Of a stretch of 64,000 nucleotides of DNA, positions 35,653 to 59,982 are shown in pieces. Location: positions 233,791 through 297,790 of the forward strand of contig CAVQJC010000004.1 in the NCBI GenBank assembly GCA_963712745.1. The letters run 5' to 3'. This DNA is from an uncultured Chloroflexia bacterium. Lineage in GTDB: Bacteria; Chloroflexota; Limnocylindria; Limnocylindrales; CSP1-4. The notes under the pieces are model-generated. The model saw only the letters and a program-made list of their open reading frames with translations. It had not been told where the DNA came from and made no database searches. A program made the translations under genes and the position numbers. Numbering within the stretch: position 1 is the first letter of the stretch; every line of letters starts with the position of its first letter.

Positions 35653-36447
35653 TCAGCGCGACACGGGGTCGGGTACTGGCGGGCCGTCGCCGTTCGAGAT
35701 GAAGCCCATTACCGGAACCGTGCCCATGGGGCCCGAGTCCTCGATCGCGTTGATCACCAGGTAGGCGCGAAGCCCGTCGTACGCACCGGCTCCCTCACAC
35801 CAACCGCCCTGCACGTCGCCGGGCCCGTTGCTGAGCCCGATGAGGGAGCATGACCAGGTACCGTCCGTGTTCTCGATCGTGTCGAGCGTCTTCCAGATGC
35901 TGGCCCCGCCAGCGAGGTCGTCGAACCCGCTGTCACGTTCCAGGCGCCTGCCCGTCATCCGGGGATCGGTGGTCTCGAAGGTCTGGCCCTGCCAACCGCT
36001 ATTCAGTGACACGTTGAGACCATTCTCTGTGAACTCTTCGTCGGGCGGATAGGGAGGCATGGGCAGTGGGCGTCCGTCGTACGTGAGCGTCCCGCTGAAG
36101 AACGCCCATTCGTCAGGAACCACGACCTGCGCCTGGGCCCCCCGAGGAGTCAGCCCATCCTCGGGCCCTTGGACCAGCCCCGACAGGGCCAAGCCTGAGC
36201 CGATGGTGAGGACGGCGGCGGCAGCGATGACTCGCGTTGCACTGAACATGGATCTTGACCTCCCATGGATCTGTCGTGTACCGCTGAATGGCCACCACCG
36301 CAGGTGGTGGTGGTCCGCTCGAGGCGATGTCGTGGCGATCTCCCGGGCGAGAGCCATGGCATCAAGCTCGATGGGAGCGCGATCTGAGTAGCGGCGCAGC
36401 GCGTGAGCCAGCCGCAATTCGAATGTGCGTGGTTCAGGCACCGTCAA
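35653..36447 (-). CDS. Putative anti-sigma factor A: cytoplasmic N-domain, TM, extracytoplasmic DPR...GxGxYxGL domain
   Basis: Overlaps the stop of the upstream ECF sigma; single TM after RSMFSAT; N-terminus similar to the gene at 58600. Confidence 0.72.
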   Translation of the reverse strand: MTVPEPRTFELRLAHALRRYSDRAPIELDAMALAREIATTSPRADHHHLRWWPFSGTRQIHGRSRSMFSATRVIAAAAVLTIGSGLALSGLVQGPEDGLTPRGAQAQVVVPDEWAFFSGTLTYDGRPLPMPPYPPDEEFTENGLNVSLNSGWQGQTFETTDPRMTGRRLERDSGFDDLAGGASIWKTLDTIENTDGTWSCSLIGLSNGPGDVQGGWCEGAGAYDGLRAYLVINAIEDSGPMGTVPVMGFISNGDGPPVPDPVSR

Positions 36448-36976
36448 GGTCCCTCCGAAGTCGCTCGACGGCCCGCGCCAGTCGGCTGCGGACGCCAGAT
36501 GCGGTCATGCCGACCTGCTGCGCGATCTCGCGCGAATCGAGGCCGGTAACGTAACGCAGGGCGAGGAGGCTGCGGTCGTCAGGTCTGAGCCGTTGCAGGG
36601 CCCGCCGCAGGTCGACCATGTCGATCTCGTCGGCAGGGTCGTTCGAGCCCATCGATGGCTGGGCGCTCGTGAGTTCCATGATTTCACGACGCTTGTGCCG
36701 CCGGACCAGCTGTCGCGCCTCATTGGCACAGATAGCGACGAGCCAGGGGCGGACACGTTCCGGTTCCCGAAGCGATGGCAAGCGCTTCCAGGCGATCACC
36801 CAGGCACTCTGCGCAGCCTCTCGTGCGAGCTCGACGTCACCCACCACCACGTACGCTGCACGCACCATTGGTTCGTGGTGCTGCGCGATCAGACGCGCGA
36901 ACGCGACCTCGTCCCCGGAAGCAGCCTGGCTGACCGTGAACGTCGGATCTGTTGCGTCCAGGACGGTGCTCTCCAT
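36434..36976 (-). CDS. ECF sigma-70 factor A
   Basis: Region 2 (GDEVAFARL...AWKRLPSLREPERVRPWL) and region 4 (LDSREIAQQVGMTASGVRSRLARA). Confidence 0.92.
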   Translation of the reverse strand: MESTVLDATDPTFTVSQAASGDEVAFARLIAQHHEPMVRAAYVVVGDVELAREAAQSAWVIAWKRLPSLREPERVRPWLVAICANEARQLVRRHKRREIMELTSAQPSMGSNDPADEIDMVDLRRALQRLRPDDRSLLALRYVTGLDSREIAQQVGMTASGVRSRLARAVERLRRDLDGA

Positions 36977-37010
36977 GGTAAGGAGATGTCCCCCGCAGGC
37001 AGAGTGTCCC
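36977..37010 (-). promoter_or_regulatory. Putative autoregulated leaderless ECF promoter GGGACA-N16-CATCT-N7-ATG
   Basis: Same geometry as the element upstream of the paralogous sigma at 58058. Confidence 0.55.
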
Positions 37011-38045
37011 AGAATCGATCGAGCTGCCTGCCGCTTCCGTGGGAGGAGGGGACTGCCCGAAGACGGGGACCCGCTCCCGCTCGCTCGTGGCGTCGCGGAG
37101 GCGGACCTTGGCTCGTCGATGCCGGCTCGTTGACGGGCTTGCTTCCCGGCCTCGCGCAAAGGTGCCCGGGCGGTCCGGTGGGGTTCGTCACGGTTAGGTG
37201 AGCGCGGCCGTTGCCGGGGCACACCACGACCGCCGCGACAGGGCTTGTGCCGATGCCGAACGGCCCCGACGCTGGTAGGAGCCGGACGCACAGGCAGGCG
37301 TGCGTCCGGCTATCTCTCCCAGCGATGCGGAAGCAGGCCCTTGCTCGTCCACCAGAGGAGGGTCGACGGGTGCCAACCCGTCGATGGCACCCTGGTGAAC
37401 GCCGGACAACCACCCAGGTCTCCGTGCCTGGTCTCGTCCCGACAGCGGGTCGCCTCACCCCTGTCTCGGGTCGCTCGGGTTCGCGACGGTGAGAGCCCCG
37501 CACACGCCTTCCTCCCGGGTGATGCCGTTCCCCGCCGTCGTCTCCGGGTCCCAGATCACGCCCTTGCTGGAGAAACGGAGCGTGAACGGGACAGGCTCGT
37601 TCGCTTCGGCCTCTGCGGCACCCGGGGCCAAGCCCCGCGCGATCCTCTACAGGGTATGGGGGTCTCAACCGAGTGATCGGCCAAGTTCCCCCTTCACGGC
37701 CGTTGGCGTGGCGCTGGATGCCGGAATCGAGACTCGGCGAGGGGCCGCATCGAGGCCTTCCTGGAAGTCGAGTAATCTGACCGCCCGTCGACCGGTCGTA
37801 CTGGTCGACGAACTCGGGCCTCCCTCAGGGGTGTCCAGCCCATGGTTCGCGTTGCCATGATCGGGCCGTCAACTCCTTGGCCCGACCGACTGCCTGACAT
37901 CAGATCCGAACGGAGGACCATCACCGATGCGATCCCTCAGGACCGATAGGCCGACCGCCGGTGTCGCCGCCGTGGCATGTCCATGCATGTGGCGAACGTA
38001 TGGTGACTCGGCGCGCGCCGTCGCCCGTCACGCTGGGACCCGTTG

Positions 38046-38606
38046 ATGGACGTCGGCACGATCACCGACATCTACGGGGCGCTCGGCCTCGTCGCGATCC
38101 TGATGGTGATGTGGTTCGGAGTGATGTTCGTGGCATCGCTGATCTCGTCGTCTGCCGGCGAGAGCTACGCCCACTTGCGCCGACGCATCGGCCCGTCCGC
38201 CATCGCAGGGGCCTGGGTCGTGGCATCGCTAGCGATGGCCGGAAGCCTCTACTTCTCCGAGGTGGCCAACTACACGCCGTGCACCCTGTGCTGGTACCAG
38301 AGGATCGCCATGTATCCGCTCGTGCTCATCCTGGGCATCGCTGCCATCCGGCGTGACATCGGCATCCGCATCTACGCCATCCCCGTGGCCGCGGTCGGCC
38401 TGGTCATCTCCAGCTACCACTACCTGCTCGAGTGGTTCCCCGAGATCGACGCCGGCGTCTGCAAGGTCGGCATCCCGTGCTCGCAGGTGTGGTTCCGCGA
38501 GTTCGGCTTCGTCAGCCTCCCATTCCTCGCGCTGATCGCGTTCGCGCTGGTGATCACCCTGCTACTGATCCCGATGCGGACGCCACCGCAGGGGTCGTCC
38601 GCCTAG
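38046..38606 (+). CDS. Disulfide bond formation protein DsbB/BdbC family
   Basis: GSLYFSEV...[15 protein letters not shown], a second Cys pair (CKVGIPC) and 4-5 TM helices. Confidence 0.92.
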
Positions 38607-39436
38607 CTCGGAACGGGGACGAGCGTCTCCGAGTCGCCACGCACGACCGCGTCCATCTGGACCGACTCGGCGTCGTCAGGCACGGGCTCATCGGGCCCGA
38701 GCTCGGCATCGGCGGCAGCCGCGAGAGCCGCGGCCATGGCCGCCTCTTCGACGATCGAGCGCTCCGCCTCGACGGCGTCGGCAGCGCGCTGGGCCTTGAG
38801 CTCGCTGAGATCGGCTTCACCGGCGAGCTCCCAGCGCATCTCCTGGAACCGCGCCGAGCTGGCCTGGTAGCGTTCGTCGACGTCGGCCCACTTGGCCAGG
38901 CATACCACGGCCGCCTCGCGGTACACGCGCCAAGCACGGACGAGCGCCACTTCCAGCGCCGGCTCGGCTTCAGCCGGGGCCACGGCCAGGCCGGCCACGG
39001 CCAGGCCACGACGCAGAGGGTGCAGGCAACGCTCGAAGAGGAAGACGAGCGACTGGGGGATACCGGAGGCGGAGTCCTTCGGACGCGGCATGAGAGCGGC
39101 GCCGAACCCGTTCACGTCGGTCGGGCTCATGCCAGGTGTCGGCGCGATCCAGAAGTCACAGGACTCGATCTCCCGCTCGACTTCCGCGCGCATGGCCGCG
39201 ACCTGCTCCTCGGTCCAGAAGCGCAGCTCGGCGATGTCTCTGTCGCTGAGCTTGGCCATGACCTCGACCGAGGCACCGCGCGCAGCGTCGACACGGCGCT
39301 GCGCCACGGATCCGATGTACTCCACCGCAGCGGACGTCAGCGCCGCCTGTGGCTTGACGAGAGCATCGAGTGCCGCGGTCGCGAGGCGGCGGGCCTCGGC
39401 GATGGCCAGATCGAGTTGCCGGAGCTCTTCATCCAT
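38603..39436 (-). CDS. Hypothetical helical protein
   Basis: 277-aa ORF from MDEELRQL with typical codon usage; no family recognised. Confidence 0.65.
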   Translation of the reverse strand: MDEELRQLDLAIAEARRLATAALDALVKPQAALTSAAVEYIGSVAQRRVDAARGASVEVMAKLSDRDIAELRFWTEEQVAAMRAEVEREIESCDFWIAPTPGMSPTDVNGFGAALMPRPKDSASGIPQSLVFLFERCLHPLRRGLAVAGLAVAPAEAEPALEVALVRAWRVYREAAVVCLAKWADVDERYQASSARFQEMRWELAGEADLSELKAQRAADAVEAERSIVEEAAMAAALAAAADAELGPDEPVPDDAESVQMDAVVRGDSETLVPVPS

Positions 39437-39620
39437 GACGCTACCCTGACGAGACCGATACAGGTCGGCCGACGCGAGTATCCGGTGGTGCCCGATACTC
39501 GTCACGACGACCATCGGGCCATCTCCGGTCGACCGACCGGACCAGCAGCGCCTCCGCACGACGCTGACGACCTCCCCGCAAGAGGAGGTCTTGGGGCCTG
39601 TGGCCGGTTCTGGTGGTCGT

Positions 39621-39824
39621 CTAAGCGGCCGTCCGGCGCGCCGCGGACGTCGTCTCTGGACGCTCGGTGAACGCGGGGTGGCCACCGGCGGCGGTGCAGG
39701 CCTCGACCCACCGGTGCGTGCCGTTGCAGAGATAGCACCAGGCGGTGGCCGGCGTGGGCCAGCCTGCCTTGCGTTCCTTCTGCCCGATGGTTCGTCCGTA
39801 CTTGCCGGCTGTGTGCTTGGTCAT
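39621..39824 (-). CDS. Small hypothetical protein with CxxC-x3-H-x5-C motif
   Basis: GAGGGAG RBS before ATG 39824; MTKHTAGKYG...WCYLCNGTHRWVEAC. Confidence 0.5.
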   Translation of the reverse strand: MTKHTAGKYGRTIGQKERKAGWPTPATAWCYLCNGTHRWVEACTAAGGHPAFTERPETTSAARRTAA

Positions 39825-40011
39825 GGCGCTCCCTCGGTCGTGGTCAGGCCCGATCGGGGCGCTGTTCGAGACTGATGGTCGCCGCCGCAGGGTCTTGCGG
39901 TCATGGGTCCAGGTCGGCAGAACGGGGCGCCCGGGCATTGCCGAGAGTGTGCAGCGTCGAGGTGACCGCAGGGCTATTGACGGCTGTGCGCCCAAACCCG
40001 AAGGTGCGCGC

Positions 40012-40299
40012 ATGGACGGACTCGTGTTCGCACTGCTCGCGCTCATCGTGGCCATCGTGGCTGCGGCAGCCCTAATCGTGATGTTCTTCAAGCGTCGCGA
40101 TCTGCCTGAGAGTCAGACCGTGGATTTCCGCGCCTACTTCGTCGTCGGCGTGGTGCTGCTGCTGATGGGCGTGGGCATGGCCGTGCTGCTGGTCACGACC
40201 ATGGACGGCTGGTGGATCCCCACGATCCCGCTATTCGTCCTCGGCGCTGTGTACGTGTTCCTTGGCTGGTCGAACCGCGAGAAGTGGCTCCAACGCTAG
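40012..40299 (+). CDS. Small 3-TM membrane protein
   Basis: GAAGGT RBS; three hydrophobic helices; ends GWSNREKW. Confidence 0.7.
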   Translation: MDGLVFALLALIVAIVAAAALIVMFFKRRDLPESQTVDFRAYFVVGVVLLLMGVGMAVLLVTTMDGWWIPTIPLFVLGAVYVFLGWSNREKWLQR

Positions 40300-40445
40300 G
40301 CCGGCTCTCTTGCGTCCGGATACCTTCGCACGCAGGCCCGCCTGACCCGGTGGAGGTTCACGCGGCTGACATCGGGCCCTGAGGAAGGGGGCGGACTGCC
40401 CCACAACTGCCGCCGGGCCAATTCGAAGGCCCCGGAGTACCATCG

Positions 40446-41975
40446 ATGCACGTGCACGAACGGGACTCGGAAGACGCGGGCGTGGGGGCTGACGGCCTCG
40501 ACGCCGCACAACGCTCCGCCACGGGTGACATGCCCGCACCCGAGCTTCGGGCTGCGCTCCACCACGCGGCCGACATCGTGGCCGACTACCTCGAGCGGGT
40601 CGAGGACTTCGCGGTGCTGCCGAAGGTCCATCCGGGCGAGCTGACCGAACAGCTCGACGGCCCGCCACCGGAGGACCCCCAGCCACTGGCCGACATCCTG
40701 CGTGACCTGGTGACCGAGGTCGTGCCCAACGTCACCCACTGGCAGAGCCCGCACAACCTCGCCTACTTCAGCTCGAACGCCTCGGGCGTCGGCATCATCG
40801 GCGAGCTCATCAGCAGCGGGCTCAACAGCAACGCCTTCCTCTGGCGCGTCTCGCCGGCCGGTACGGAACTGGAGGGCATCACCGTGAACTGGCTGCGTGC
40901 GGGTCTCGGGCTGCCGGACACGTTCGACGGCGTCTTCAACGACACGGCCTCCATCAGCACGCTCTCCGGGCTCGCCTGCGCGCGACAGCAAGCCACCGGC
41001 AACGCCGCCCAGGCCGGCCTTCGCGCCTGGCCACCGCTGCGCATCTACAGCTCCAGCCAGGCCCACTCCTCGGTCGCGCGGGCGGCCATGATCCTGGGCA
41101 TCGGCCGGGATGGGGTCCGCGCCATAGACGTCGACGATCGGCTGGCCATGGATCCCGCGGCACTGCGGGCTGCCATCACCGAGGACCGCGAGAACGGCTG
41201 GCTGCCGGCCGGCCTGGTGGCCACCGTGGGCACCACCTCGACTACCGCGGTCGACCCTGTCGACGCCATCGCCGACGTGGCCGAGGATGAAGGGCTGTGG
41301 CTGCACGTGGACGCGGCCTATGCCGGCTCCACCGCCCTCATCCCGTCGATGCGCCACTACTTCAGCGGCTGGGAGCGCGCCGATTCCATCGTGGTCAACC
41401 CGCACAAGTGGATGTTCACGCCCTTCGACTGCTCGCTGCTGCTGACCCGTCGCATGGGGGTGCTGCGTGATGCCCTCAGCCTCGTGCCCGAGTACCTGCG
41501 CTCATACGACGAGAGGGGCACCGGGCGCGACTACAGCGAGTACGTACCCCAGCTCGGCCGGAAGGCCCGCGGCATCAAGATGTGGATGCAGCTGCGCTAC
41601 TTCGGCCTGTCCGGCCTGCGCCGGCGGCTGCAGGTGCATCTCGACCTGGCCCAGGAGCTGGCCGGCTGGATCGAGGCCGACCCCGATGCCGAGCTGCTCT
41701 TCCCAGTGCCCTTCGGAGTCGTCTGCTTCCGGCTGCGGCCCTCTCGCTACTCGGGCAGGGAAGGGGAGCCGGAGGTGGCTGCGGCCGTCGACCACCTGAA
41801 CGAACGCGTGATGAACCAGGTCAATGACAGCGGCGAGCTCTTCCTCTCACACACGAAGATCGAAGGCCGGTTCGTGCTGCGCGCGGCCATCGGCAATATC
41901 CGCACCGAGCGGCGCCACATCGAACAAGCCTGGACCTCACTCCGGGCGGCGGCCGATCGGCTGGACGGCGCGTGA
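40446..41975 (+). CDS. Group II PLP-dependent decarboxylase (aromatic-L-amino-acid decarboxylase-like)
   Basis: THWQSP, SPAGTELE, AHSSV, GTTSTTAVD, WLHVDAAYAG and VNPHKW. Confidence 0.92.
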   Translation: MHVHERDSEDAGVGADGLDAAQRSATGDMPAPELRAALHHAADIVADYLERVEDFAVLPKVHPGELTEQLDGPPPEDPQPLADILRDLVTEVVPNVTHWQSPHNLAYFSSNASGVGIIGELISSGLNSNAFLWRVSPAGTELEGITVNWLRAGLGLPDTFDGVFNDTASISTLSGLACARQQATGNAAQAGLRAWPPLRIYSSSQAHSSVARAAMILGIGRDGVRAIDVDDRLAMDPAALRAAITEDRENGWLPAGLVATVGTTSTTAVDPVDAIADVAEDEGLWLHVDAAYAGSTALIPSMRHYFSGWERADSIVVNPHKWMFTPFDCSLLLTRRMGVLRDALSLVPEYLRSYDERGTGRDYSEYVPQLGRKARGIKMWMQLRYFGLSGLRRRLQVHLDLAQELAGWIEADPDAELLFPVPFGVVCFRLRPSRYSGREGEPEVAAAVDHLNERVMNQVNDSGELFLSHTKIEGRFVLRAAIGNIRTERRHIEQAWTSLRAAADRLDGA

Positions 41976-43045
41976 GAATGCGCCGCTCCACCTTCGCCGG
42001 TCTGCTGGGGGCAGCGTCATTCCTGGCCGCCACGCTCGTCGTCGCTCCCGATGGCGCGAGGCCGGTACTCGGGCAGGGGGTCGGTGGGGCCACCTGGACG
42101 CCGGCCTCGTCCTCCACGACCGCCATGCCCAGCCGCTTCCTGCTCTCGGGCGACTCCATCACCTATCGCACGGAGGCGGTGTGGGACACGGCGCAGGCAC
42201 GCGGGTTGGCTCGCTACGAGGACGATGGACTGCGCTACACGCTCGAGGCCAACGACCGCAGCGGACGACTCAGTGCCACCGGCTACTGGGCCACCAACCT
42301 GCCCGACCCGGCCTACGATCGCGACGACGACGATGGCGACCGTCGCTGGGAGGAAGCCGAGATCGTGGCGGGGAAGCAGGGTCCAAAGGCCGACCACACC
42401 TACACCACCAGCGTGCAGTTCTCCCGCTGGTACCCCAAGCGCGTCAAGGGTGTCTGCGAATGGGCCTGGGACCGCCGCCGGGGCAGCACGGAGATCCTCT
42501 CACAGCTCTCGCGTGACCTGTTCGGCGAGTGGCAGGCTGAGCGCTACACGTTGACCTACGAGACGCTGCCGTACGAACGCGTAGAGGTGGGCCCCCCTGT
42601 CCCCCAGGGCGCCTCACGCGCTCGCTGTCGCGACGCCGACCCCGGGGTCAACCAGTCTGGCTACACCATCACCTTCAGCCGGCCTTTGAGCTGGTCCGAG
42701 TTCCGGGCGCTGGTCAGTGCGGGCGTCGTCCGCTGGACGGCGTGGGAGGCGGTCGGAAGTAGTGCCCAGGACAAGCTCGTGTGGACCTGTGGCGGCCCCG
42801 CCGACGACGTCAAGCGATTGGGTCCCTGTCGTGCCTTGGGCATGTCGGTCGACGGCGTCAGCGCCGCCGTCGGCTACCTCGACGACATCGCCGTGAGCCA
42901 GCTCCGTGCGCATGACCAGGTGGTCTCGGTAGAGGGCCTGCGGGATCCGCTGACCGGTCTGCTCTACGACTTCGGCGGATTCGGCGTGGAGCGGCCGGGC
43001 CTGACCGTCAACGACCGCTACTGGGACCTCGTCCTCGCCGACTGA
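41972..43045 (+). CDS. Secreted hypothetical protein
   Basis: N-terminal signal (RR plus hydrophobic stretch), acidic DRDDDDGD loop, paired Cys. Confidence 0.7.
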   Translation: MRMRRSTFAGLLGAASFLAATLVVAPDGARPVLGQGVGGATWTPASSSTTAMPSRFLLSGDSITYRTEAVWDTAQARGLARYEDDGLRYTLEANDRSGRLSATGYWATNLPDPAYDRDDDDGDRRWEEAEIVAGKQGPKADHTYTTSVQFSRWYPKRVKGVCEWAWDRRRGSTEILSQLSRDLFGEWQAERYTLTYETLPYERVEVGPPVPQGASRARCRDADPGVNQSGYTITFSRPLSWSEFRALVSAGVVRWTAWEAVGSSAQDKLVWTCGGPADDVKRLGPCRALGMSVDGVSAAVGYLDDIAVSQLRAHDQVVSVEGLRDPLTGLLYDFGGFGVERPGLTVNDRYWDLVLAD

Positions 43046-43096
43046 CCTCATCCATGCGAACATTCGCACTCCCGACTCACGAACGAAGGAGATGAC

Positions 43097-43540
43097 ATGG
43101 CCCAGGTCCGACGAGCTGAAGCGAACTGGAGCGGCGATCTGCTCAGCGGCGGCGGTGCCGTGAGCGCGGCCACCAGCGGTATCTTCGACAACCAGGCCAT
43201 CACCTGGCGCGCACGCACGGAGGCCTCCGAGGGCAAGACCAGCCCCGAAGAGTTGCTGGCCGCAGCGCACGCCGCCTGCTACTCGATGGCGGTCAGCAAC
43301 GAGCTGGCCAAGGCCGGCTTCCCGCCCGCCCGTGTCGACGTCACGGTCGTGGTCAGCGCCGACAAGACCGACGCGGGCTGGACGGTGCTCACGAGCGCGA
43401 TCAGCCTGCGCGCCACGGTCCCCGGCGTCGATGAGGCCACGTTCAATCAGCAGGCCGAGGCAGCCAAGGGCGGCTGCCCCATCTCGCGCGCCATCAGCGG
43501 CTCGGTCGAGATCACGCTGGACGCAGTCCTGGAGGGCTAA
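43097..43540 (+). CDS. osmC: OsmC family peroxiredoxin
   Basis: AAGGAG RBS; TSPEELLAAAHAACYSMA and AKGGCPISRA. Confidence 0.93.
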   Translation: MAQVRRAEANWSGDLLSGGGAVSAATSGIFDNQAITWRARTEASEGKTSPEELLAAAHAACYSMAVSNELAKAGFPPARVDVTVVVSADKTDAGWTVLTSAISLRATVPGVDEATFNQQAEAAKGGCPISRAISGSVEITLDAVLEG

Positions 43541-43707
43541 GGCACAGGCGCCGACACCCGGGCTAGGGAGTCTTCACATTCCGGCAACCCCGCATTCACC
43601 AGCCGTCAGGTACAACTGCAACCAAGCCGCCACGAGTCCCTCGTGCGCCGGCCCAACAGAGCCGCGCCGCTCCTCGGTGCGGGTGTTGGACTTGACGAAA
43701 GGTTGGC

Positions 43708-44985: not shown

Positions 44986-45001
44986 CACCGCTCGCACCCA
45001 C

Positions 45002-45037
45002 AGCGGCCCTGTCAGTCGTCGACAGGGCCGCTTCTTC
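45002..45037 (+). terminator. Intrinsic terminator after htrA
   Basis: 12-bp stem agcggccctgtc/gacagggccgct followed by tcttc. Confidence 0.7.
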
Positions 45038-45103
45038 ATGCTCCGGGCCCTGCTAGCATGGCCCGATCCCGCCCACCGTCAGCAGAGGAGGCCAGCCGAG
45101 TCG

Positions 45104-45493: not shown

Positions 45494-45494
45494 T

Positions 45495-46184: not shown

Positions 46185-46193
46185 TCTCGGGTC

Positions 46194-48576: not shown

Positions 48577-48617
48577 AGGCAGGGCCCGCCCGTCGGCGTG
48601 GTGTAACCTCACGAGCG

Positions 48618-49181: not shown

Positions 49182-49188
49182 GGAGCCC

Positions 49189-50832: not shown

Positions 50833-51689
50833 CCATCGACGCCAGCGCCGAGTGGCGCGCCGATCTCGGTGGCGGCACCAGCATCACCCTCATACAGGCC
50901 GGCCTCTTCACGACCGACGCCGGCACGATCCTGGGCCCGGTCCCACGCGAGATGTGGGAACACCTCGTCGACGATGAGCTCGACGAGCGGCACCGTATCC
51001 CTCAGGCCCTCAACTGCCTCGTGGTCGAGACGCCGTCTGGCCGTGTCCTCGTCGAGACCGGCATCGGCGAACGCATGGACGACCACCACATGGAGCAGCG
51101 CGGCGTGCGCGGCGAGCCCATCCTGCCTTCACTCCGGACGGCCGGCTTCGACCCTCGGTCGGTCGACTACGTGGCGCTCTCACACCTGCACTTCGACCAC
51201 GCCGGCGGGCTGCTGACCGCGGCCGGGGAGTACGCCTTTCCCCGTGCGCGCATCGTGGCCCAGGCGGACGAGTGGGACTACGCCCTGGGCTCCAACCCGC
51301 GCCTGGTGGCCTCGTACGAGCAGGCCGAGCTTCGCCTCGCCGAAGCCTGGGCCCGGCCGGGTTCCGCAGACGGAGACGAGGAGCTCATGCCCGGCGTCGA
51401 GGTGCGCCGCACCAGCGGCCACTCGGGCGGTCACCAGGCCATCATCGTGCGCGGCCGCGACGAGACCGTGGCCTTCATCGGCGACCTCTTCATGCGCCCG
51501 TGGTCGGCCAACCCGCGCTGGATCACCTCGTTCGACGACTTCCCGCTGACGAGCGTGGAAGTCAAGGCCGCGCTCTTCGCGGAGGCTGCGGCCGAGGACT
51601 GGACCATCGTGCTCTCGCATGAGCCGCGCCGGCCGGTGGGCAAGCTGCGCCCGTACAAGGACAAGTACCGCTTCGAATCGCTCCTCTAG
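50829..51689 (+). CDS. MBL-fold metallo-hydrolase (YtnP-like)
   Basis: [20 protein letters not shown] and SHE. Confidence 0.9.
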
Positions 51690-51892
51690 CCGGCGCCGTC
51701 GAGCAGTGTCATTCGCGCCAGACGTCGCCAAGGGCGACCGTAGTCGCGCACGTAGCCACTGTGAACACTGGTGAGGGGCGACGGCGCATGCGGAGCGGGT
51801 CCATTCGATAGCCAGGCGTCGCCAGAGGCGACATGTGGCCTGGTCGCCTGCCCCGATGTGCGACTACCGTCGGCCGGGGCGACGTATGTCGA

Positions 51893-52594
51893 TCAGGGCG
51901 CGCTCGTCGGCTCGCTAGCGTCGCTGTCCGCGACGCCTGGCCACGAGGCCGAGTCGAGCAGGGGCTCGATGATGCCGGCGGCCGTCTCGCGATCCACGGG
52001 ACCGTAGCGCAAGTGGTGGATGGCACCGTCGGCGTCGATGAAGACATGCGTCGGCAACCCGAAGCCCCGATACGTCTCGAAGACCGCGCCCGTGGCGTCG
52101 AAACCGATGATGTAGGGGAGTGAGTATTGCTCGGCGTAGGCCGCGACGTCCTCGGCGGTCGTCTCCTGCACGCTCACCGCGATCATCTCGAGGCCGTCCT
52201 CGTGGTAGACCGCGTAGGTGTCACGCAGGACGGGTGTTTCCTCCTGGCACGGCGGGCACCAGGTGGCGAAGAAGCTGAGCCATACGGGACTGCCGCGCAG
52301 GGCGGCGAGGCTGATGGGAGCGCCGTCCAGGCCGAGCAAGGGCTCGGTCCGGCCCTCGACCTCGGCTTCCAGCTCCGGCGCCAGCTGGCCGAGCTCCAGG
52401 CCGGTCGTCCGCTCGCCGGTCTGGTAGAAACCCGATCCGGGGGACGCGATCTGCGCCTCGGGCGCGCTGACGGGCGTGGCCAGCAATGCCAGCAGGCCGG
52501 CTGCCACGACGAGCACGACCACGAGGATGACAAGGTGGCCGAGCGTGAACGGACCGATGACCTGTCGTTGCCATCGTGAGGCGGGGGTCGACAT
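51893..52594 (-). CDS. Membrane-anchored TlpA/ResA thiol-disulfide oxidoreductase
   Basis: TM helix, [12 protein letters not shown] and GLPTHVFID. Confidence 0.92.
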
Positions 52595-52621
52595 GCCCGG
52601 CCATTGTGGCCCGGGTCGGCG

Positions 52622-53431
52622 TCAGACGCTGGGGATGAGCCAGGCCAGCTCGCGTGCCACCAGGCCCAGCCAGTCGAAGATGAGCGCGAAACCGAGGAAG
52701 ACCACCAGCGCGCCACCGACGATCTCGATGAGGCGGCTGTAGCGCAGCAACGGCCTGGTGATGAGCGGGGCGCGGTCCACCGCCAGGGCCATCAGGATGA
52801 AGGGGATGCCGAGGCCGATGGAGTAGGCCACCAGCAGACCCACGACCTGCGGGCTGGTGCCGACCGCGGCCATGGTGAGGATGGCGCCCAGCGTGGGCCC
52901 GATGCACGGCGTCCAGCCGATGGCGAAGACGGCGCCGAGCGCGAAGCCACCGATGACCCCGCCACGCCTGGCGCCGGGTCGCTCACCACCGAAGCGCTCC
53001 AGAGGCTTCCACGAGCGTGCCAGGGTGCGGAAGCGGAGCACACCCATGAGGTTGAGGCCCAGGATGATCAGGATGACACCGCCGATCTGGCGAAGCAGCG
53101 GCAGGTTCTCGCGCAACGGGCCGGCGGCAGCGTAGACGGCCACGCCGAAGACCGTGAAGACCACCGAGAAGCCCAGCACGAACGCGAAGGCGTTGGGCAT
53201 AGCCCGCCAGCCGGTGCGGGCCGGCCGAGCCGGGGTCGGGGCGGGTGTGTCGCTACCGCTGCTCAGCGCCGTGGCGCCAGCAGTGGCCAGGGCGGGGGAG
53301 GCCATGCCGATCGGATTCGACACCGCGAGGATGCCCAGCTGACCCAGGTACGCCGGCACCACCGGCAGCACGCACGGCGAGAGGAAGCTGATGATCCCCG
53401 CCAGCAGCGCCGCTCCGAGCGTCAGGTCCAC
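52622..53431 (-). CDS. ccdA: Cytochrome c biogenesis protein CcdA
   Basis: AGIISFLSPCVLP and GWTPCIGPTL; 6 TM helices. Confidence 0.94.
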   Translation of the reverse strand: MDLTLGAALLAGIISFLSPCVLPVVPAYLGQLGILAVSNPIGMASPALATAGATALSSGSDTPAPTPARPARTGWRAMPNAFAFVLGFSVVFTVFGVAVYAAAGPLRENLPLLRQIGGVILIILGLNLMGVLRFRTLARSWKPLERFGGERPGARRGGVIGGFALGAVFAIGWTPCIGPTLGAILTMAAVGTSPQVVGLLVAYSIGLGIPFILMALAVDRAPLITRPLLRYSRLIEIVGGALVVFLGFALIFDWLGLVARELAWLIPSV

Positions 53432-53447
53432 GAGCGCTCCGCGGGCC

Positions 53448-53723
53448 CTAGCTCGGCGTCGGCAAGGCGCGCTCCAGGAACTCGCGTACCTGGCGGCCGC
53501 TGGTCACGAGCTCGCTCTCGGTATCGCCGATGGCGAACACGGGGATGCGCCGGCGGTAGCGCCGTTCGAGCTCGGGATCGGCCGAGATGTCGATGCGCTC
53601 GACCCCCACGGGCCCCAGGCCCGCGCGTGCTCGCTGCGCGAGCTCGTCGCGGAGGAGCAACTCGGCGTCGTCGCACAGATGGCAGCCCGGGCGGCGGTAG
53701 ATGATCAGCGTGGGACGGGTCAT
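53448..53723 (-). CDS. Glutaredoxin-like protein (DUF836)
   Basis: YRRPGCHLCDDA...IDI...Y...IPV. Confidence 0.88.
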   Translation of the reverse strand: MTRPTLIIYRRPGCHLCDDAELLLRDELAQRARAGLGPVGVERIDISADPELERRYRRRIPVFAIGDTESELVTSGRQVREFLERALPTPS

Positions 53724-53774
53724 GTCGTTCATCGGTCTGGCCTGATTCTACGGTGCGCTACGATTCCATTCTGC

Positions 53775-53850
53775 GCCCCCGTAGCTCAGTGGATAGAGCG
53801 GCAGCGTCCTAAGCTGCGCGTCGGCGGTTCGAATCCGTCCGGGGGCGCCA
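53775..53850 (+). tRNA. tRNA-Arg (anticodon CCT)
   Basis: gcccccg/cgggggc acceptor stem, TAGCTCAGTGGATAGAGC D-arm, gcagc-gt-CCT-aa-gctgc anticodon arm, GGTTCGAATCC, CCA. Confidence 0.95.
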
Positions 53851-53913
53851 TGCCACCCTGTTCGACCTCGTCGTCCAGGCGCCTGACGCACTCCCCAGCC
53901 ACCGGGCGGCGAT

Positions 53914-53954
53914 GAAGCGAAACGGCCCTCCGAGCTCGCGGCTCGAAGGGCCGT
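53914..53954 (-). terminator. Hairpin terminator between tRNA-Arg and the convergent island gene
   Basis: acggccctccgagc/gctcgaagggccgt stem, T-containing tail on the minus strand. Confidence 0.6.
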
Positions 53955-53966
53955 AGGAGTGAAGTC

Positions 53967-55243
53967 TCAGGGGTGCGGCTGCCAGCTGGGCCACTCGGCA
54001 TCCGCGACGCCCTCGATCTTGGTCGCCACCAGCGCCATCGGGTCGGTCACATCCACCATCGTCAAGATCCCGTCGGGCCATTGGCCGAGGATGGAACGGC
54101 CGTCCGGCGACCAGCCAAGCACGGAGAGCGAGATGTCGAGCGAGGTCACGTCCGCCGAGGCCACGTCGTAGAGCATCGGCCGTGGGTCAGCGGCACCCCA
54201 GCTCGTGAAGGCGATCAGCGAGCCGTCAGGGGACCAGTACGGCTCGAACTCGTCCCCCTGCTCGCCGGCGATGAGCGTGTCCTCACCGGTGGCCAGGTCC
54301 ACGAGATAGACGTCCCATGCCTCGGCGCCGGTGAAGACGGCCAACGTCGATCCATCTGGGGAGATGGAGAGCTGGTCTAACCCGGAGCGGCCGGTCAGGT
54401 CGCCGATCCGCTCGACGTTCGCGCCATCGGCGTCCATGCGATAGATGCCGTAGTCGATCTCGCCGAGCGTCCTGCCGGCGAAGATGATGCTCTTGCCATC
54501 CGGCGTCCACACCGGCGCGCGCGCATCCAGCTCGGGAACACCGATGACCTGGGCCAGCTCGATGCCGTCGGTGGGCGCGCTCCAGATCCGCTGTCCGCGT
54601 CGGCGAGTTCGTCGGTGTCATCCAGCCGCTCGGCGGCGTAGACGAGCCTCGAGCCGTCGGGGCTCCAGGCGTGGATGTTGGGCTTGGTGCCCCTTGAGTG
54701 TGGAGCGATCGGCTCGCCGACCGCGACGGGGTTGGAGCCGTCGGCATCCCGGACCGTCATCGTGATCGGGCCATCGCGGCCGGCCCACGACTGGTAGGCG
54801 AAGCGCGTTCCGTCGGGCGACCACCTGGGAAGGAAGGCGCCTTCGTCGGCCCCCGTCAGTCGGACCGGCTCACCGGGACTGCCGGTCGGATGCGTGTAGA
54901 CGTCGCCGTCATAGGTCGAGTAGGTGAGTCCAGCGAGCGGATCACCACCGTCGGAGGCGTCGACGAGGCCGCTGCCGATGGCATAGCCGCCGATGGCGCC
55001 GATGGACAGGAGCGCGATGGTGAGCAGGACGATCGCGACGCGGGGCACGACCCCGAGCTGTGCGCGGGTTTCCATGGAGATCCACCTTTCCGTGGTGGCC
55101 CAGGCGGGTCGCTGTCGCGTAGCCGCGAGACGCTCGACGAATGCAGTCTCGAGGCTCTCGGGCGCCCGGGGGGCGGCGTCCGCTTCGAGCCAGTTGGTCA
55201 GGAGGCGGTCCAGATTGACATCGGGTGCGTCTTTGACGCTCAT
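53967..55243 (-). CDS. Putative anti-sigma factor B with TolB-like (PD40) beta-propeller; frameshift near 54590
   Basis: ATGA overlap with the sigma gene; N-terminal LDRLLTNWL...RQRPAW..ERWISM, TM helix, repeated WSPDG motifs across two ORFs. Confidence 0.78.
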
Positions 55244-55791
55244 GCCGGACCCCCTTCCTGCAATGGCAGCCGCGCGTCCGCCTCGAGCGAGGCGCGCATC
55301 TGCGTCTTGGTGCGGTTGAGTCGGGACTTGACGGTGCCGACCGGGAGGCCCAGGGCCAGCGCGGTCTCGTGCATCGGCAGCCCGAGGTAGTAGTGGAGGA
55401 CGATGAGTGCCCGCTGCTCGGGCTTGAGCGTCATGAAGACCCGTTCGAGCTGGTCGCGATCGGCGGTCACGGTGGCGGGGTCGACAGCCTCGGTCTCGAT
55501 CGGCCGGACCTGTCCTTCCGCGCGGGCGCGCCGCTTCTCCTTGCGTGCCTCGCGATAGCACGCGTGGACCAGCAAACGTCGGATCCAGGCGTCGAAGGCA
55601 TCGGGGTCACGCAGGCCCGCGAGGTCACGCCAGGCGCCGATGAGGGCCTCCTGGGTGGCGTCATGGGCGCGGTCGTCGTCCCGGAGGATGAGCCGTGCGA
55701 TGGCGTAGAGCCGGTCGATCTGGCCGCGTCCCAGCTCCGTGAACGCGGCCCGATCACCCGCCATCGCCCGTTCGACGAGATCCCGCTGCAT
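55240..55791 (-). CDS. ECF sigma-70 factor B
   Basis: AGGAG RBS; GDRAAFTEL...DATQEALIGAWRDL..LRDPDAFDAW and ETALALGLPVGTVKSRL. Confidence 0.93.
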   Translation of the reverse strand: MQRDLVERAMAGDRAAFTELGRGQIDRLYAIARLILRDDDRAHDATQEALIGAWRDLAGLRDPDAFDAWIRRLLVHACYREARKEKRRARAEGQVRPIETEAVDPATVTADRDQLERVFMTLKPEQRALIVLHYYLGLPMHETALALGLPVGTVKSRLNRTKTQMRASLEADARLPLQEGGPA

Positions 55792-55835
55792 CGGGTCTCC
55801 TGTTGCGGCGGCCCGTTTGGCCGCTCTCGAACCAT

Positions 55836-55862
55836 AGGACCCGCTGCAAGGGCATGGGTTCC
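55836..55862 (-). promoter_or_regulatory. Putative ECF promoter GGAACC-N16-GTCCT upstream of sigma B
   Basis: Matches the general ECF -35 GGAAC / -10 GTC pattern with a 16-nt spacer. Confidence 0.5.
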
Positions 55863-56085
55863 ATCTTCGTGCGGGCCGCCGTCGGCCGGCCCTGCTCTGC
55901 ATCGGGTCGCGGCTCCGCCCGAACGTCGTGCCATTGGCATGGCATCGGCTTCGATCGGTTCGTCGGCCAGCAAATCGGGAACCTTCTCCGCACCCCAGTA
56001 CCCCGACGGGTGGGCGCGACCCACGGCGGGCGCCTCGCCGCGACATCCAGTCGTGAGAAAGGATCATGCAAGCAGGAGGCACCTG

Positions 56086-56823
56086 ATGAGACGACAGCAA
56101 GCGGCCAGCCTCGCTTTCGCAGCGGCACTGGCCACTACCGTCGCCCCAAGCACCCTCGCTCAGGGTGAGCCGGCCGATGCGGACCACCCCGTGTGGAAGA
56201 TCGTCCCACCGAACAAGTCCGTCGGCGGGCAGACCTACGAGGAGTGGGCCAGGGACTATGCCGACTGGCTCCTCTGGACGCGCACGCCGGAGAACCCGCC
56301 TCCGGCCGCGACGCTGGACTGCCAGGGCGGCCAGCACGGTGGCGATGTCTTCTTCGTGCCGCACACGATGATCGGCACCACGACCGAGTATGCCTGCACC
56401 GTGGGTGCCGACCAGCATCTGCTCCTCTTCCTCGGCGGATGGATCGACTGGGCCGACGACGGCCAGACCGGCGAGCAGATGCTCGACGAGTTCTACGATC
56501 CCCACTACCAGTTCCACGATTTCGAGTTCACGCTCGACGGCGTGACGGTGCCAGTCGGTAGTCACCTGACTCTCCAGCCGGACCTGTACTCGGTCGACTT
56601 CGCCGAGGACAACCTCTTCGGGTTGCCGGCGGGGCCGCGCGATGTCCTGCTGGCGGCCTTGACTGTCGCCATGCTGGAACCGCTCGAGCCCGGCGGGCAC
56701 GAGCTGACGGTGAAGAACACCAACTTCGATCCGGGTCTCAATGACGGGGACAGCCAGTTTGCCGACGCCGTGTCCATCGTGACGCTCACCGTCGAGGAGC
56801 CCACCACGGCCTCCGCTTCCTAG
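56086..56823 (+). CDS. Secreted hypothetical protein
   Basis: AGGAGG RBS, signal peptide ending TLA-Q, intact acidic 245-aa ORF with two Cys. Confidence 0.8.
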   Translation: MRRQQAASLAFAAALATTVAPSTLAQGEPADADHPVWKIVPPNKSVGGQTYEEWARDYADWLLWTRTPENPPPAATLDCQGGQHGGDVFFVPHTMIGTTTEYACTVGADQHLLLFLGGWIDWADDGQTGEQMLDEFYDPHYQFHDFEFTLDGVTVPVGSHLTLQPDLYSVDFAEDNLFGLPAGPRDVLLAALTVAMLEPLEPGGHELTVKNTNFDPGLNDGDSQFADAVSIVTLTVEEPTTASAS

Positions 56824-57440
56824 CCGCCCTCACTGCAGAGTCAACGCTCCCGACTCCGCCGACCGCCGGAGCGGGAGCGTAGCCATGCCATCGGGTGGCG
56901 TATCGCCCGCTTTCCGGTGGCTGCGGCGAGGGCGAACTTCGCCTTGAGTGGTGACGTCGACAGTCCGGGCGGCGACGGGATGATCCTCGGCTGCCTGCTG
57001 CTGGCGGCGCCACTCCGGCCGCCCACGATGTCCTTGTGGCTGTGGTACGTGCTCAAGCGGCACGGGAACGCCACGAGTCGAGAATGGTGACGAGCGTCCT
57101 GTGCGTCGATGCCGCTACAGGTACGCGGCGAGCTTCTCCTCGGGTTTGGCAGCTAGCGCCCCGCGCCCGTCCGGGGGCGCCAGGCCAACCTGGTCTTCTT
57201 CGCCGTGTGCTGGCTCCACGAGCCGCAGCCGAGTAGGTGGGTCTTTCTCGGTCATCGCTCTGTGGCTAGGTTCGATGTTCGGCATGCAGGCCCCGATGGT
57301 ACGCTCGCCCTGACGCCCCAGTCGGCGTCTCCCATCCAGAGCGGACGAGGGACTCGGCCCCGTGACTCCGCAGCAACCAGTCGGCTCCCTCAGCCGACAC
57401 GGTGCTCCCGCCGAGTGCGATGGTCGAAGGAGGACCACTC

Positions 57441-57720
57441 ATGGGCGTCAAGCTCAGCATCGAGATCGATCAGTCCCCTCGAACCGGACGACCGGGAGTT
57501 GCTCACCGGCCTCTCCATCATGGTCATGGCTATCGCCAACCACGAGATGGCGAAGCAGCACTTCCCCGGCGCCTTCGACACGGAAGAGGAGCCGGAGCCG
57601 ATGCCCTGCATGGCCGAGGGCCAGGGCGCAGACGAGGGCAAGTACTGCGTGAGCGAGGTCGCCCACAAGGGCCGCCACAGGTTCCGCGTCATCCTGCCGC
57701 CGACCGAGGGCCTGAACTAG
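57441..57720 (+). CDS. Small hypothetical protein with C-x12-C-x5-H-x3-H motif (frameshift near 57477)
   Basis: AAGGAGG RBS; MGVKLSIEIDQS joins PLEPDDRELL... if one C is added to a C-run. Confidence 0.6.
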
Positions 57721-58023
57721 GCCTGCCCTTCAGGAGGTGGCTGTAGCCAGCCGCCGCCATACGCCGCTACCTGTGCGACGAGGCCGGCTGCGATCACCGC
57801 GACTGTCCGCCCCGACGTCGGGCCGACGAGGACCAGCAGCCCTTCGGCGTTCCCTACCAGGGACCCGCCCTGCCGCAGCACGTCGTGGATCTCGACGGTG
57901 TCCCGCTCGGTGCCCCGATGTACGCGGTACAGGGTGCGGCGGGGAGCTGGCGACTGGTGCCGCTGGACGACTGACATGCGGACCGCTTCACGTCCCGAGA
58001 TGCCAGCGAAGTTGCATCCGCCT

Positions 58024-58057
58024 GAGACAGTAGGCGCTCGACAAGGCTCTATAGGAC
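58024..58057 (+). promoter_or_regulatory. Putative autoregulated leaderless ECF promoter GAGACA-N16-GCTCT-N7-ATG
   Basis: Same geometry as 36977-37010. Confidence 0.55.
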
Positions 58058-58607
58058 ATGGATGCGGTGACACGAACGGCAGACCGGGGGCGGGCTGGCT
58101 TGCTGGCGGCTGCCGCTGCCGGTGACGAGCTCGCCTTCCGCCGCATCATCGTCGATCACCACGACGACATGCGCCGCGTGGCCGCCTACGTCGCAGGTGA
58201 CCACGCCATCGCGGACGAGGCCACGCAGGCCGCGTGGCTGATCGCCTGGAAGAAGATCGGCAGCGTCCGCGACGAGGCTTCCCTGCGCCCGTGGCTCGTG
58301 TCGGTCGCGGCCAACGAGGCCAAGCGCGTCCTGCGAACAGCAACGTCGGCGGGCCGCGTTCGAGGGCGCGGCTGCGGCAGGGGTCGAGTCGAGCGGCGTC
58401 GATCCCGCGACGGGTGTCGATGCGATGGACCTGTACGCGGCGATGGCACGGCTCGATCCCGACGACCGTGCCCTCCTCGCCATGCGCTACGTCGCGGGCT
58501 TCGACTCGAACGAGCTGGCGAAGGCCACCGGCATCAGCGCGTCGGGCACCCGCAGCCGCATCGAGCGGGCACTGAAGCGGCTCAGGAAGGATCTCAGCGA
58601 TGGATGA
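58058..58607 (+). CDS. ECF sigma-70 factor C, paralog of sigma A (frameshift around 58340-58380)
   Basis: GDELAFRRI...AWKKIGSVRDEASLRPWL; second frame LDPDDRALLAMRY...GTRSRIERA. Confidence 0.88.
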
Positions 58608-59982
58608 CATGAACGCCTTCGAGCGCCAGGTCGTGGGCCAGATCCGCCGCTTCGCGGGTCCGTCGCGTCCGGTCGATGACGCCGCGATCTTCACCGCCAT
58701 CACCGCCACCCGGTCCCCCAAGTGGAGGTTCAGGTCCATGTTCAGCGCGACCAAGTTCGTCGTCGCGGGTGCCATCGTGGCGCTGTTCGGCGGCTTCCTG
58801 CTGGCGGGGGTCCTGACACAGCCGAGCGAAGATCGGGTGCCGGCAGCCGGCGCGGCAACCCCTGCATCGATATCGTCTGTCGACCCGACCCGTGCGCTGG
58901 ATCGATACCTGGACATGCGTGCGCGTCTGACCACCAAGAATCGCTCCCGGGGTCCAGGCGGTCATCAACGACGGCGCGGGCCACGAGCTGACCGTCTCTC
59001 GGCGACGACGGACTCGGCGGGAGTATCACCGTCGCCCCCGACGGGTCGGTCTGGCTGCTGGGCCAGGAGCGCTTCGTCGAGCTCGGACGACCTGGGACGT
59101 GTCCGGGAGCCCCTTCAAGGGACGCCGGCTACGACCTCGCCTTCGCCCCGGACGGCACGCCGTGGGCCCTCTCGGGGGACCGGGTCCACCGTTTCTCTGA
59201 CAGCGACTGGCTCAGGGTCAGTCGCGGACTGAGGCCGCTGGAAGAGCTCGAGGTCGGCGATCTTGCGCTCGAGGTCCTGTCGGACGGCTCGGTCTGGACC
59301 AGGGACCAGGAGGAGCTGGCCCGACTGGACGGCGACACCTGGACGACGTTCCGCTTCGCTGACACGGCGAATCCCGCTGCCCAGCGAGGACCTGTGGGTC
59401 TTCCCGGTCGACCTCGCCTCCACCCCCGACGGCAGCCTGTGGGTCGCGTTCAGTACGTGGGAGCGGAACAGTCCGCTGCGGGGTGGGTTGGCACGCTTCG
59501 ACGGATCGTCCTGGAAACTTGTCGAGCCGCTGGGAGAGGGTCATCGGCACATGCCGATGTCGCTCGCGAGCGGCAAGGACGGGAGCTTGTGGGCGGCCCT
59601 GTACGGCTGTGAAGGTGAGGGCTGCGAGGAGGACACGAGCCGCTGGCACCCGTTCCTCGCTCGTCTGGACGAGGATGGATGGACCGTGCTGGGTGAAGCG
59701 GACGGCGTGGCCCCGGTCGGAAAGCCCGGTTGGTGGGTCGGACAGATGGCCATCACTGCCGACGGTCGCCTGCTCGCAGACGTCGATGATGGAGACTTCG
59801 GCTCCGTCTGGAGGCCGAGTCACCTCGCCATCTTCGACCTCGACGGGCGAGAGGCGACCCTGCCCAACCTCGATGGGAGAGACGGCGTGGCATCCATGGC
59901 GGGCGCCCCGGACGGCACGTTCTGGGTGCTCGACGGGAGCCTCTTCATCATCGATTCCGAGGCCGTGGCGGGCATCGAGTAG
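58600..59982 (+). CDS. Putative anti-sigma factor C with extracytoplasmic beta-propeller (several frameshifts)
   Basis: Overlaps the sigma stop; RSMFSAT plus TM; repeated (A/T)PDGxxW blades in pieces up to 59982. Confidence 0.68.

Follow-up and report, generated by a model that had tools for sequence, protein, structure and literature searches.

Three anti-sigma genes in a 64,000-nucleotide window of DNA from an uncultured soil bacterium of the Chloroflexota (order Limnocylindrales) each carry a candidate internal translation start. The window is the whole stretch that was analysed, and the three genes, which we call A, B and C, each follow the gene of an extracytoplasmic function (ECF) sigma factor. 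In each of them a Shine–Dalgarno (SD) sequence and an in-frame ATG are found at the boundary between the short N-terminal part and the single membrane helix. The pattern of codon use in large sets of related genes indicates that this site is kept by selection on nucleotides. We think it likely that translation starting there yields a second, membrane-anchored isoform of the anti-sigma factor that is blind to sigma.

The preliminary description of this DNA had pointed to three strings, and these are present as given: GGG AGG TCA AGA TCC ATG in gene A (36264-36247, minus strand), GAA AGG TGG ATC TCC ATG in gene B (55090-55073, minus strand) and TGG AGG TTC AGG TCC ATG in gene C (58723-58740, plus strand). 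It had also held that TCC always precedes the ATG and that the spacing is always 9 nucleotides (nt). Neither rule survives in homologues, where ACC, ACG, CCC, CCG and AGC also stand before the start codon and the spacing ranges from 6 to 10 nt. The parts of the three loci are listed below, with the predicted pairing energy of each internal SD.

36434..36976, minus strand: ECF sigma factor A, 180 amino acids (aa) plus stop; Pfam Sigma70_r2 and r4_2
35653..36441, minus strand: full-length open reading frame (ORF) of anti-sigma A; probable GTG start at 36441, overlapping the sigma A stop
36259..36263, minus strand: core GGAGG of the internal SD of gene A, 9 nt before the ATG; -11.4 kcal/mol
36247..36249, minus strand: in-frame internal ATG of gene A, from the translation
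36172..36231, minus strand: membrane helix of A, 20 hydrophobic residues, starting 6 residues past the internal Met; from a hydropathy scan
55240..55791, minus strand: ECF sigma factor B, 183 aa plus stop; Pfam r2, r4_2 and Sigma70_ECF
53967..55243, minus strand: anti-sigma B; its ATG at 55243 overlaps the sigma B stop (ATGA)
55082..55090, minus strand: internal SD of gene B, GAAAGGTGG, encoding Glu-Arg-Trp; -11.9 kcal/mol
55073..55075, minus strand: in-frame internal ATG of gene B, 6 nt past the SD block
54974..55039, minus strand: membrane helix of B, 22 residues, starting 12 residues past the internal Met, with two Arg between
58058..58607, plus strand: ECF sigma factor C; TGA stop at 58605-58607, region 2 and region 4 in different frames
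58609..59982, plus strand: anti-sigma C; ATG at 58609 (or 58600)
58724..58728, plus strand: core GGAGG of the internal SD of gene C, 9 nt before the ATG; -10.5 kcal/mol
58738..58740, plus strand: in-frame internal ATG of gene C, from the sequence
58756..58815, plus strand: membrane helix of C, 20 residues with a GG pair; from the translation

A hydropathy window scan gives a single helix between the N-terminal part and the ectodomain. The N-terminal part comprises about 65 aa in A, 56 aa in B and 43 aa in C, and the ectodomain is about 160 aa long in A, a PD40/TolB-like beta-propeller in B and propeller-like in C. For anti-sigma A an alternative start, a TTG at 36447, is possible; its predicted short form (35653-36249) would have 198 aa. 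The short forms of A and C would begin with five residues past the Met, one of them Arg or Lys, and then 20 hydrophobic residues; that of B would begin with 11 residues, two of them Arg, and then 22 hydrophobic ones. Cores of 20-22 residues suggest an uncleaved anchor.

SD strength was measured as the predicted pairing of the 18 nt before an ATG with the genome's own 16S rRNA tail, and a strong site was one that reached -9.5 kcal/mol or better. The host genome (4.2 Mb, 68.5% GC, 20 contigs, 84.6% complete) has a 16S rRNA 3′ end of CACCTCCTTTCT, a canonical anti-SD tail, and the GAAAGG of gene B is a perfect complement to its last bases. As background we took the 12,563 in-frame ATGs that lie distally within coding ORFs, of which 4.2% pair at -9.5 kcal/mol or better and 2.6% at -10 or better, and GGAGG at a spacing of 9 nt in the frame nGG AGG occurs only 0.25 times per 1,000 internal ATG or GTG codons. 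Near early candidate start codons GGAGG is enriched at spacings of 4-10 nt. AGG is rare, at 5.25% of Arg codons (2,143/40,836), as are GGA (7.9%), GGG (16.7%) and GAA (14.6% of Glu); GTG makes up 42% of Val codons and TTG 5.3% of Leu codons. Because the background frequencies of strong pairing, AGG and GGAGG are so low, the three sites are far beyond chance. They are also stronger than most real starts in this genome, since only 14.4% of 215 unambiguous gene starts reach -9.5 kcal/mol (a start was called unambiguous if it is the first start codon, lies at most 10 codons from the upstream stop and is followed by none in the next 30).

The three genes are not alone in this respect. Matches to sigma region 2 number 45 in the genome, and 33 of these have an adjacent downstream gene that bears a membrane helix. 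An ATG lies within -16 to +3 codons of the helix in 27 of these 33 genes, and in 19 the pairing is -9.5 kcal/mol or better. As a control we used 207 other coding frames with their first hydrophobic helix at least 120 codons in; there, 64 have a nearby ATG and just 2 have strong pairing. Given that strong SDs are exceptional in this genome, their concentration inside anti-sigma genes is all the more striking.

The clearest signs of selection on nucleotides come from relatives of gene B. This family shares an Arg-Gln-Arg-Pro-x-Trp stretch that is followed by Glu-Arg-Trp-[Ile/Leu]-[Pro/Ser]-Met. The preliminary description had proposed to test AGG against its synonymous Arg codons at the site, and here AGG prevails almost without exception. 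In 37 distinct sequences with a median aa identity of 37%, the Glu of the motif is GAA in 37/37 and the Arg is AGG in 36/37. At four further conserved Arg columns in this alignment the synonymous codons vary freely, and AGG is used in 0/126 cases, all of them being CGN. An independent metagenome set of 74 sites gave the same picture (GAA 73/74, AGG 74/74), with AGR at 3/472 Arg codons and GAA at 51/209 Glu codons elsewhere in that set. These sites were chosen by the peptide pattern W[AR]xxERW[IL][PS]M, which was assumed to be fully degenerate for Arg and Glu codons and did return one GAG; as it fixes the Met, the set is uninformative on Met conservation. The sets based on hidden Markov models (HMMs) and tblastn are free of that limit. 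After reduction to sequences with less than 85% nucleotide identity, GAA is found in 77/78 and AGG in 77/78, and AGA, which is rarer than AGG, in 0/78. Since GAA-AGG is fixed where other Arg columns use CGN, the Glu-Arg-Trp-x-Pro-Met ‘protein motif’ is, on this codon evidence, best understood as a ribosome-binding site in translated form.

The start position behaves in the same manner. It is ATG in 34 and GTG in 3 of the 37 B-family sequences, and where the Met is replaced in the B and related families, the codon is GTG in 4/4 cases of Val and TTG in 1/1 case of Leu. Matches to the family profile at E up to 0.001 gave 2,106 library clusters, with no selection on the motif; among the best 150 of these the position is M in 136, V in 9, L in 4 and gapped in 1. 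The codon after the ATG has a GC content at third positions (GC3) of 0.46, against 0.74-0.91 in the next twelve codons of the B family. The SD is the least-paired stretch of its region, with a predicted unpaired fraction of 0.74-0.78. Local folding energy dips only slightly at the internal ATG, and RNAalifold found no consensus RNA structure over the SD in 72 B-family sequences with less than 85% identity. No second conserved nucleotide block was found upstream of the SD in the B family. A scan of the three N-terminal coding regions for sigma-70-like sites, with ECF-type promoters outside its reach, gave no internal promoter.

For the helix of the C type and a second module family we collected 106 distinct sites from this genome and about 20 relatives, 89 of which could be analysed. 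An ATG stands at the start position in 93/106. On average the 89 sites pair at -10.78 kcal/mol, against -4.73 kcal/mol for the same seven-residue peptides re-coded with the codon usage of the genome, and 65/89 beat 95% of their synonymous re-codings; in a control window 14-21 codons upstream only 1/89 does so. In the C-type and related modules Arg is encoded by AGR in 86/105 cases at codons -7 to -1 and in 15/228 at codons -8 to -30, and Gly by GGG or GGA in 52/62 cases at codons -7 to -1 and in 39/122 further upstream. Moreover, the purine block is found in different frames, where it encodes different residues: WRF (TGG AGG TTC), RGF (A AGG GGG TTC), GGS (GGA GGT TCC), EGG (GAA GGA GGC) and GRT (GGG AGG ACC). 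Arg is often swapped for Gly (AGG to GGG), which keeps GGRGG and, by way of G-U pairs, the pairing. Orthologues of gene A likewise keep GGAGG although the encoded residue moves from G to W.

All three upstream genes are of the ECF type with regions 2 and 4, A and B by their Pfam matches (sigma A also scores 76.5 bits on NCBIfam TIGR02937, cut-off 42.9) and C with the two regions in separate frames. Among the 33 helix-bearing genes next to sigma genes, the start lies 4 nt ahead of the end of the sigma stop in 19 and within 40 nt in most of the rest; the 25 B-family genes listed all begin with ATGA, GTGA or TTGA. At 105/105 B-family sites there is a stop-overlapping start 49-58 codons upstream with an SD of its own, whose mean strength is -10.5 kcal/mol (internal SD: -11.5). 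At the protein level the N-terminal parts are conserved, and they show the GC3 periodicity of coding sequence. In most of the best 150 library representatives the match to the family profile sets in at, or close to, residue 1, which means that gene callers place their start at the upstream site.

Neither Pfam nor NCBIfam has a family that matches the N-terminal part of A, B or C, and none of the three contains a recognised anti-sigma domain (zf-HC2, RskA and the like). A profile search against the sequences of solved structures gave nothing better than E 0.06. We modelled the complex of an intact C-type sigma/anti-sigma pair, a paralogue from this genome, and obtained a score of 0.84, with 0.02 for the best of three controls. 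The mark for this score is reached by 58/80 solved complexes and 2/110 mismatched pairs, a calibration that holds only roughly for a model built on its own small alignments. At least 94% of contacts agree between runs, and the partner has a predicted local distance difference test (pLDDT) of at least 78. In the model, anti-sigma residues 4-32 contact sigma residues 23-63 and 121-175 (regions 2 and 4), and the residues encoded by the SD fall in the linker, outside the interface. Together with the model, these observations point to an upstream part that is a real sigma-binding module, and to a long form that is real.

The unit of SD, ATG and helix also occurs by itself. In the related locus L084, the sigma gene (13-561) is overlapped by an anti-sigma gene (558-1397), and behind this pair comes an ORF of 399 aa (1528-2727) with no sigma gene directly before it. 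The first start codon of this ORF is the ATG of the same SD-ATG-helix unit, with an in-frame stop 22 codons upstream, and the related locus L042 is similar. These stand-alone copies keep anti-sigma linker codons in front of the SD, after the in-frame stop. Elsewhere in this genome, at C17:375934-376146 (minus strand), the unit follows directly and in frame on a piece of sigma region 2, within an open frame of 704 codons; this looks like the product of a deletion, in which only the short form could function. As stand-alone genes exist, the exchange of modules between the two gene forms is real.

How widespread is the feature? The C-type module is confined to the genus; it was found in 11/24 other genomes sampled from the genus and in 5/301 genomes of the phylum, this one included. 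The B type was found in 11/23 and 11/16 genomes of two families of the class and in 25/401 genomes of the phylum, again with this one, and its matches in the phylum fall nearly all within the class. Another orthologous anti-sigma group, with its helix at about residue 100-115, was examined at 29 loci from 29 other genomes of the family. Of these, 17 have a hydrophobic segment at 20-200 residues, and a strong site is present in 1/17, a protein that probably has no membrane helix. Two genomes from another family of the class have strong sites in 2/15 and 1/23 adjacent helix-bearing genes, and three Chloroflexota genomes outside the class in 1/6, 0/8 and 0/9, in a five-genome comparison that used the best 100 of 130 sigma matches. 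Because other anti-sigma families and outside genomes rarely carry a strong site, the feature is restricted to certain lineages and families and is not general to anti-sigma genes. A tblastn search of plasmids gave two matches, both at chance level (E 0.9), and the protein atlas gave unnamed clusters only. A similar motif, Arg-Trp-x-Pro-Met-Asn, may occur in Actinobacteria. The related genomes sampled include members of a small-genome family of about 1.1 Mb. A contrast between a small-genome freshwater family and a larger-genome sister family of the Limnocylindrales is drawn in PMC13212565.

On our preferred reading, the operon mRNA would carry the sigma gene, a coupled start for the long anti-sigma factor and, independent of that, an internal start. 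Placed at the boundary of the sigma-binding part and the helix, this initiation region would consist of an accessible SD, a spacer of 6-10 nt and an ATG, rarely GTG or TTG. Ribosomes that start here would make a Met, a few residues that include Lys or Arg, the helix and the whole ectodomain. Without the sigma-binding domain, this short form could not hold sigma. It might share a signal, a protease or a partner with the long form, and could in this way set the threshold or the gain of the sigma response. As such operons are usually driven by their own sigma factor, competition by the short form would buffer the switch. The ectodomain may equally well have an independent role as the output of the operon. 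The preliminary description had spoken of possible dual-product genes, with a shorter exported sensor or effector that could be a decoy, co-receptor or output. The selection on SD and start codon and the upstream module support this in part; the short product and its role are what we infer.

One may go further and regard a whole set of anti-sigma families in this class as nested, two-in-one genes, in which a sigma-blind, membrane-anchored copy of the sensor would compete with the long form for signal, site-1/site-2 proteases or partner subunits and act as a decoy receptor that sets the threshold and damps positive feedback. We offer this more specific version tentatively, as a possibility that would have to beat rather long odds. 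It includes the idea, to be held just as loosely, that Trp-Arg-Phe-x-Ser-Met is, like Glu-Arg-Trp-x-Pro-Met, a ribosome-binding site in disguise.

Several points weigh against an internal start. Ordinary starts in this genome mostly have a weak SD, so SD strength is no general requirement for initiation here. The site could also be blocked by ribosomes that come through from the upstream start. One search for RNA sequencing runs over 54900-59300 listed none, which counts neither for nor against expression. The motif coincides in part with conserved residues (Trp, Arg and Phe, or Glu-Arg-Trp), the WRF class has synonymous freedom in the Arg codon only, with a per-site p of about 0.05, and since paralogues and kin are not independent, our counts overstate the number of independent events. 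No ATG is present at 10/106 clear C-type sites (CTG 5, ATC 2, GTG 1, AAG 1, ACG 1), and 7/10 of these still pair at -9.3 kcal/mol or better; they may be recent losses, weak near-cognate starts or signs of a role for the SD of its own. The complex model is a prediction, and is for a C-type paralogue pair rather than for A or B. Finally, some of the genes contain frame shifts. That of anti-sigma B lies near 54587-54608, where the homologue runs in frame -1 to 54608 and in frame -3 from 54587. Sigma C is shifted near 58336-58383 relative to intact homologues, and anti-sigma C changes frame twice (58860-58995 and 59345-59455). Frame changes in N-terminal domains recur in several related loci, and four further loci have this domain in another frame. 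Gene decay or errors in the assembly may account for the shifts in locus C and in part of B.

A first rival reading is an effect on elongation, where the SD-like block, as a stretch of rare codons or by pairing with the anti-SD, makes ribosomes pause ahead of the helix for the sake of folding, sigma capture or membrane targeting. The block does consist of rare codons at a domain boundary, it is kept at 7/10 C-type sites that lack the ATG, and the translational coupling of sigma and anti-sigma makes co-translational assembly conceivable. SD-driven pausing in cells has been disputed. We consider a pause improbable, as it leaves unexplained the ATG 6-10 nt downstream in 93/106 and 34/37 sites, the GTG and TTG substitutes in the B-type families and the AT-rich third base of the next codon. 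Other rare codons are unused (AGA is found in 0/78 of the B family), and the same SD-ATG-helix unit is the sole start of the stand-alone genes. It is very unlikely that SD and ATG are a passive relic of fusing a sigma-binding module onto the genes of secreted proteins. The preliminary description had suggested that an N-terminal domain was fused to such genes together with their ribosome-binding site, and the exchange of modules it implies is real: the same SD, ATG and helix are found in stand-alone genes, and paralogues with different ectodomains have the helix module in common, which is a sign of module shuffling. The passive part of that suggestion fails, since the signal is fixed amid saturated synonymous sites. 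At about 37% aa identity the synonymous sites of other conserved columns are scrambled and GAA-AGG is fixed; the re-coding tests reject neutrality, and the linker codons before the SD in stand-alone copies suggest descent from anti-sigma genes, not the reverse.

We give slightly less credence still to a reading that takes the internal ATG for the sole true start, the upstream stretch for an untranslated open frame and the proteins for something other than anti-sigma factors. The stop-overlapping start with its own SD at 105/105 B-family genes speaks against it, as do the conservation of the N-terminal part as protein, its coding GC3 periodicity and its predicted binding to sigma regions 2 and 4, and the match of most of the best 150 representatives to the profile from at or near residue 1. 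In its favour, long spurious upstream frames do occur in high-GC genomes, several unrelated secreted-protein genes here show such frames, and the N-terminal parts are without a Pfam or NCBIfam family. Least probable of all, in our estimate, is a pure protein motif, with positive residues and a Met selected at the cytoplasmic edge of the helix and the codons incidental. Arg or Lys before a membrane helix would be expected in any case, and Glu-Arg-Trp and Trp-Arg-Phe are conserved as residues; a motif of this kind does not account for the change of Arg to Gly with the purine run kept, for the block in different frames or for the extreme choice of codons (AGG 36/37 versus 0/126, GAA 77/78 versus a genome usage of 14.6%), and other anti-sigma families and helix-bearing proteins do without the block.

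The three loci resemble several known systems. Pairs of an ECF sigma factor and a single-pass anti-sigma factor of the RseA, RsiW and RslA type are regulated by intramembrane proteolysis. The loci described here share with them the overlapping, co-translated genes, the layout of N-terminus, helix and ectodomain, and the presence of a Peptidase_M50 gene (site-2-protease family) in the genome, the main copy of which is split over two open frames at C10:117015-118203. They differ in that the sigma-binding part is very short (43-65 aa), has its modelled contacts in residues 4-32 and is unclassified. It resembles the short class II anti-sigma domains of the CnrY and NepR type, which are small helical sigma-binding elements; the element of about 30-45 residues is here modelled as touching sigma regions 2 and 4, and in a comparison by sequence only, no relation to CnrY or NepR was found.

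Dual starts themselves have precedents. The S107/S105 holin/antiholin of phage lambda has two starts at the cytoplasmic edge of a helix, its products have opposing activities, and their ratio sets a threshold. Those starts are two codons and one charge apart, whereas about 45-90 residues, a whole domain, would be omitted here. CheA also has a long and a short form. Like known internal-start isoforms, the short forms predicted here would arise from an SD and an in-frame start inside a longer ORF and would lack one domain. Unlike them, they would begin exactly at a membrane helix, so that the two forms differ in a cytoplasmic, regulator-binding head, and the site is conserved over large paralogous families and a whole class, where the known cases concern a single gene. 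To our knowledge, no conserved internal initiation region at a boundary of domain and helix has been reported. Our literature search, with supplementary start-site tables outside its coverage, was aimed at internal starts in anti-sigma genes and at this lineage, and it turned up no such case in an anti-sigma factor. In-frame internal starts that make N-terminally truncated isoforms are already known, and the short form is believed to act jointly with the long one. The literature covered included PMC9546586, PMC13515050 and a Campylobacter preprint (10.1101/2022.11.09.515450).

Some further observations concern the same proteins. We modelled the ectodomain of A (35653-36170, minus strand) as an all-beta structure of eight strands, with a mean pLDDT of 68.6 from an alignment of 6 rows. 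It matches no Pfam family, and Foldseek found no match to solved structures at E up to 0.001; the best folds, all weak, are the eight-stranded barrels of dirigent, DUF3224 and Diels-Alderase proteins, at target-normalised template modelling (TM) scores of 0.43-0.62. A second anti-sigma family, with paralogues on C17, has this ectodomain in common with A at 27-33% identity. The helix of the C type is almost invariant among paralogues despite their differing ectodomains, which is unusual in a single-pass protein and may point to a specific membrane partner. The N-terminal domain of a fourth C-type anti-sigma factor starts at 63911-64000 (plus strand) and is cut by the end of the window.

Other features were annotated in the window. 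A gene for tRNA-Arg(CCT), which reads the rare AGG codon, lies at 53775-53850 (plus strand), about 120 nt from the end of anti-sigma B, and a tRNA-Pro(GGG) gene lies at 34015-34091. A partial Peptidase_M50 match of 30.8 bits is found at about 23980-24153 (plus strand; C4:257770-257943). The c-di-GMP-II-GCG riboswitch variant is matched twice on the plus strand, at 61046-61129 (63.7 bits) and 61927-62011 (62.3 bits), for a gathering score of 47.9, and both matches sit among several ORFs for secreted-looking proteins. There is also a SAM riboswitch match at 57329-57426 (plus strand; 51 bits, gathering score 44.4).

Pairs of ECF sigma and anti-sigma factors are very common signalling devices, and they are modelled as one sigma factor plus one anti-sigma factor per operon. 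The families described here are large, with 2,106 library clusters for the B type alone. An RNA-level constraint that passes for a conserved motif of the protein should caution anyone who predicts function from motifs. If the internal start is real, annotations would change, since current gene calls give the long form only. If the decoy version were also true, these genes would be the bacterial analogue of the decoy receptors that eukaryotes obtain as splice isoforms. More generally, an internal start would mean that a third player is hidden inside the anti-sigma gene, and the stoichiometry, threshold and feedback of these operons would have to be rethought.

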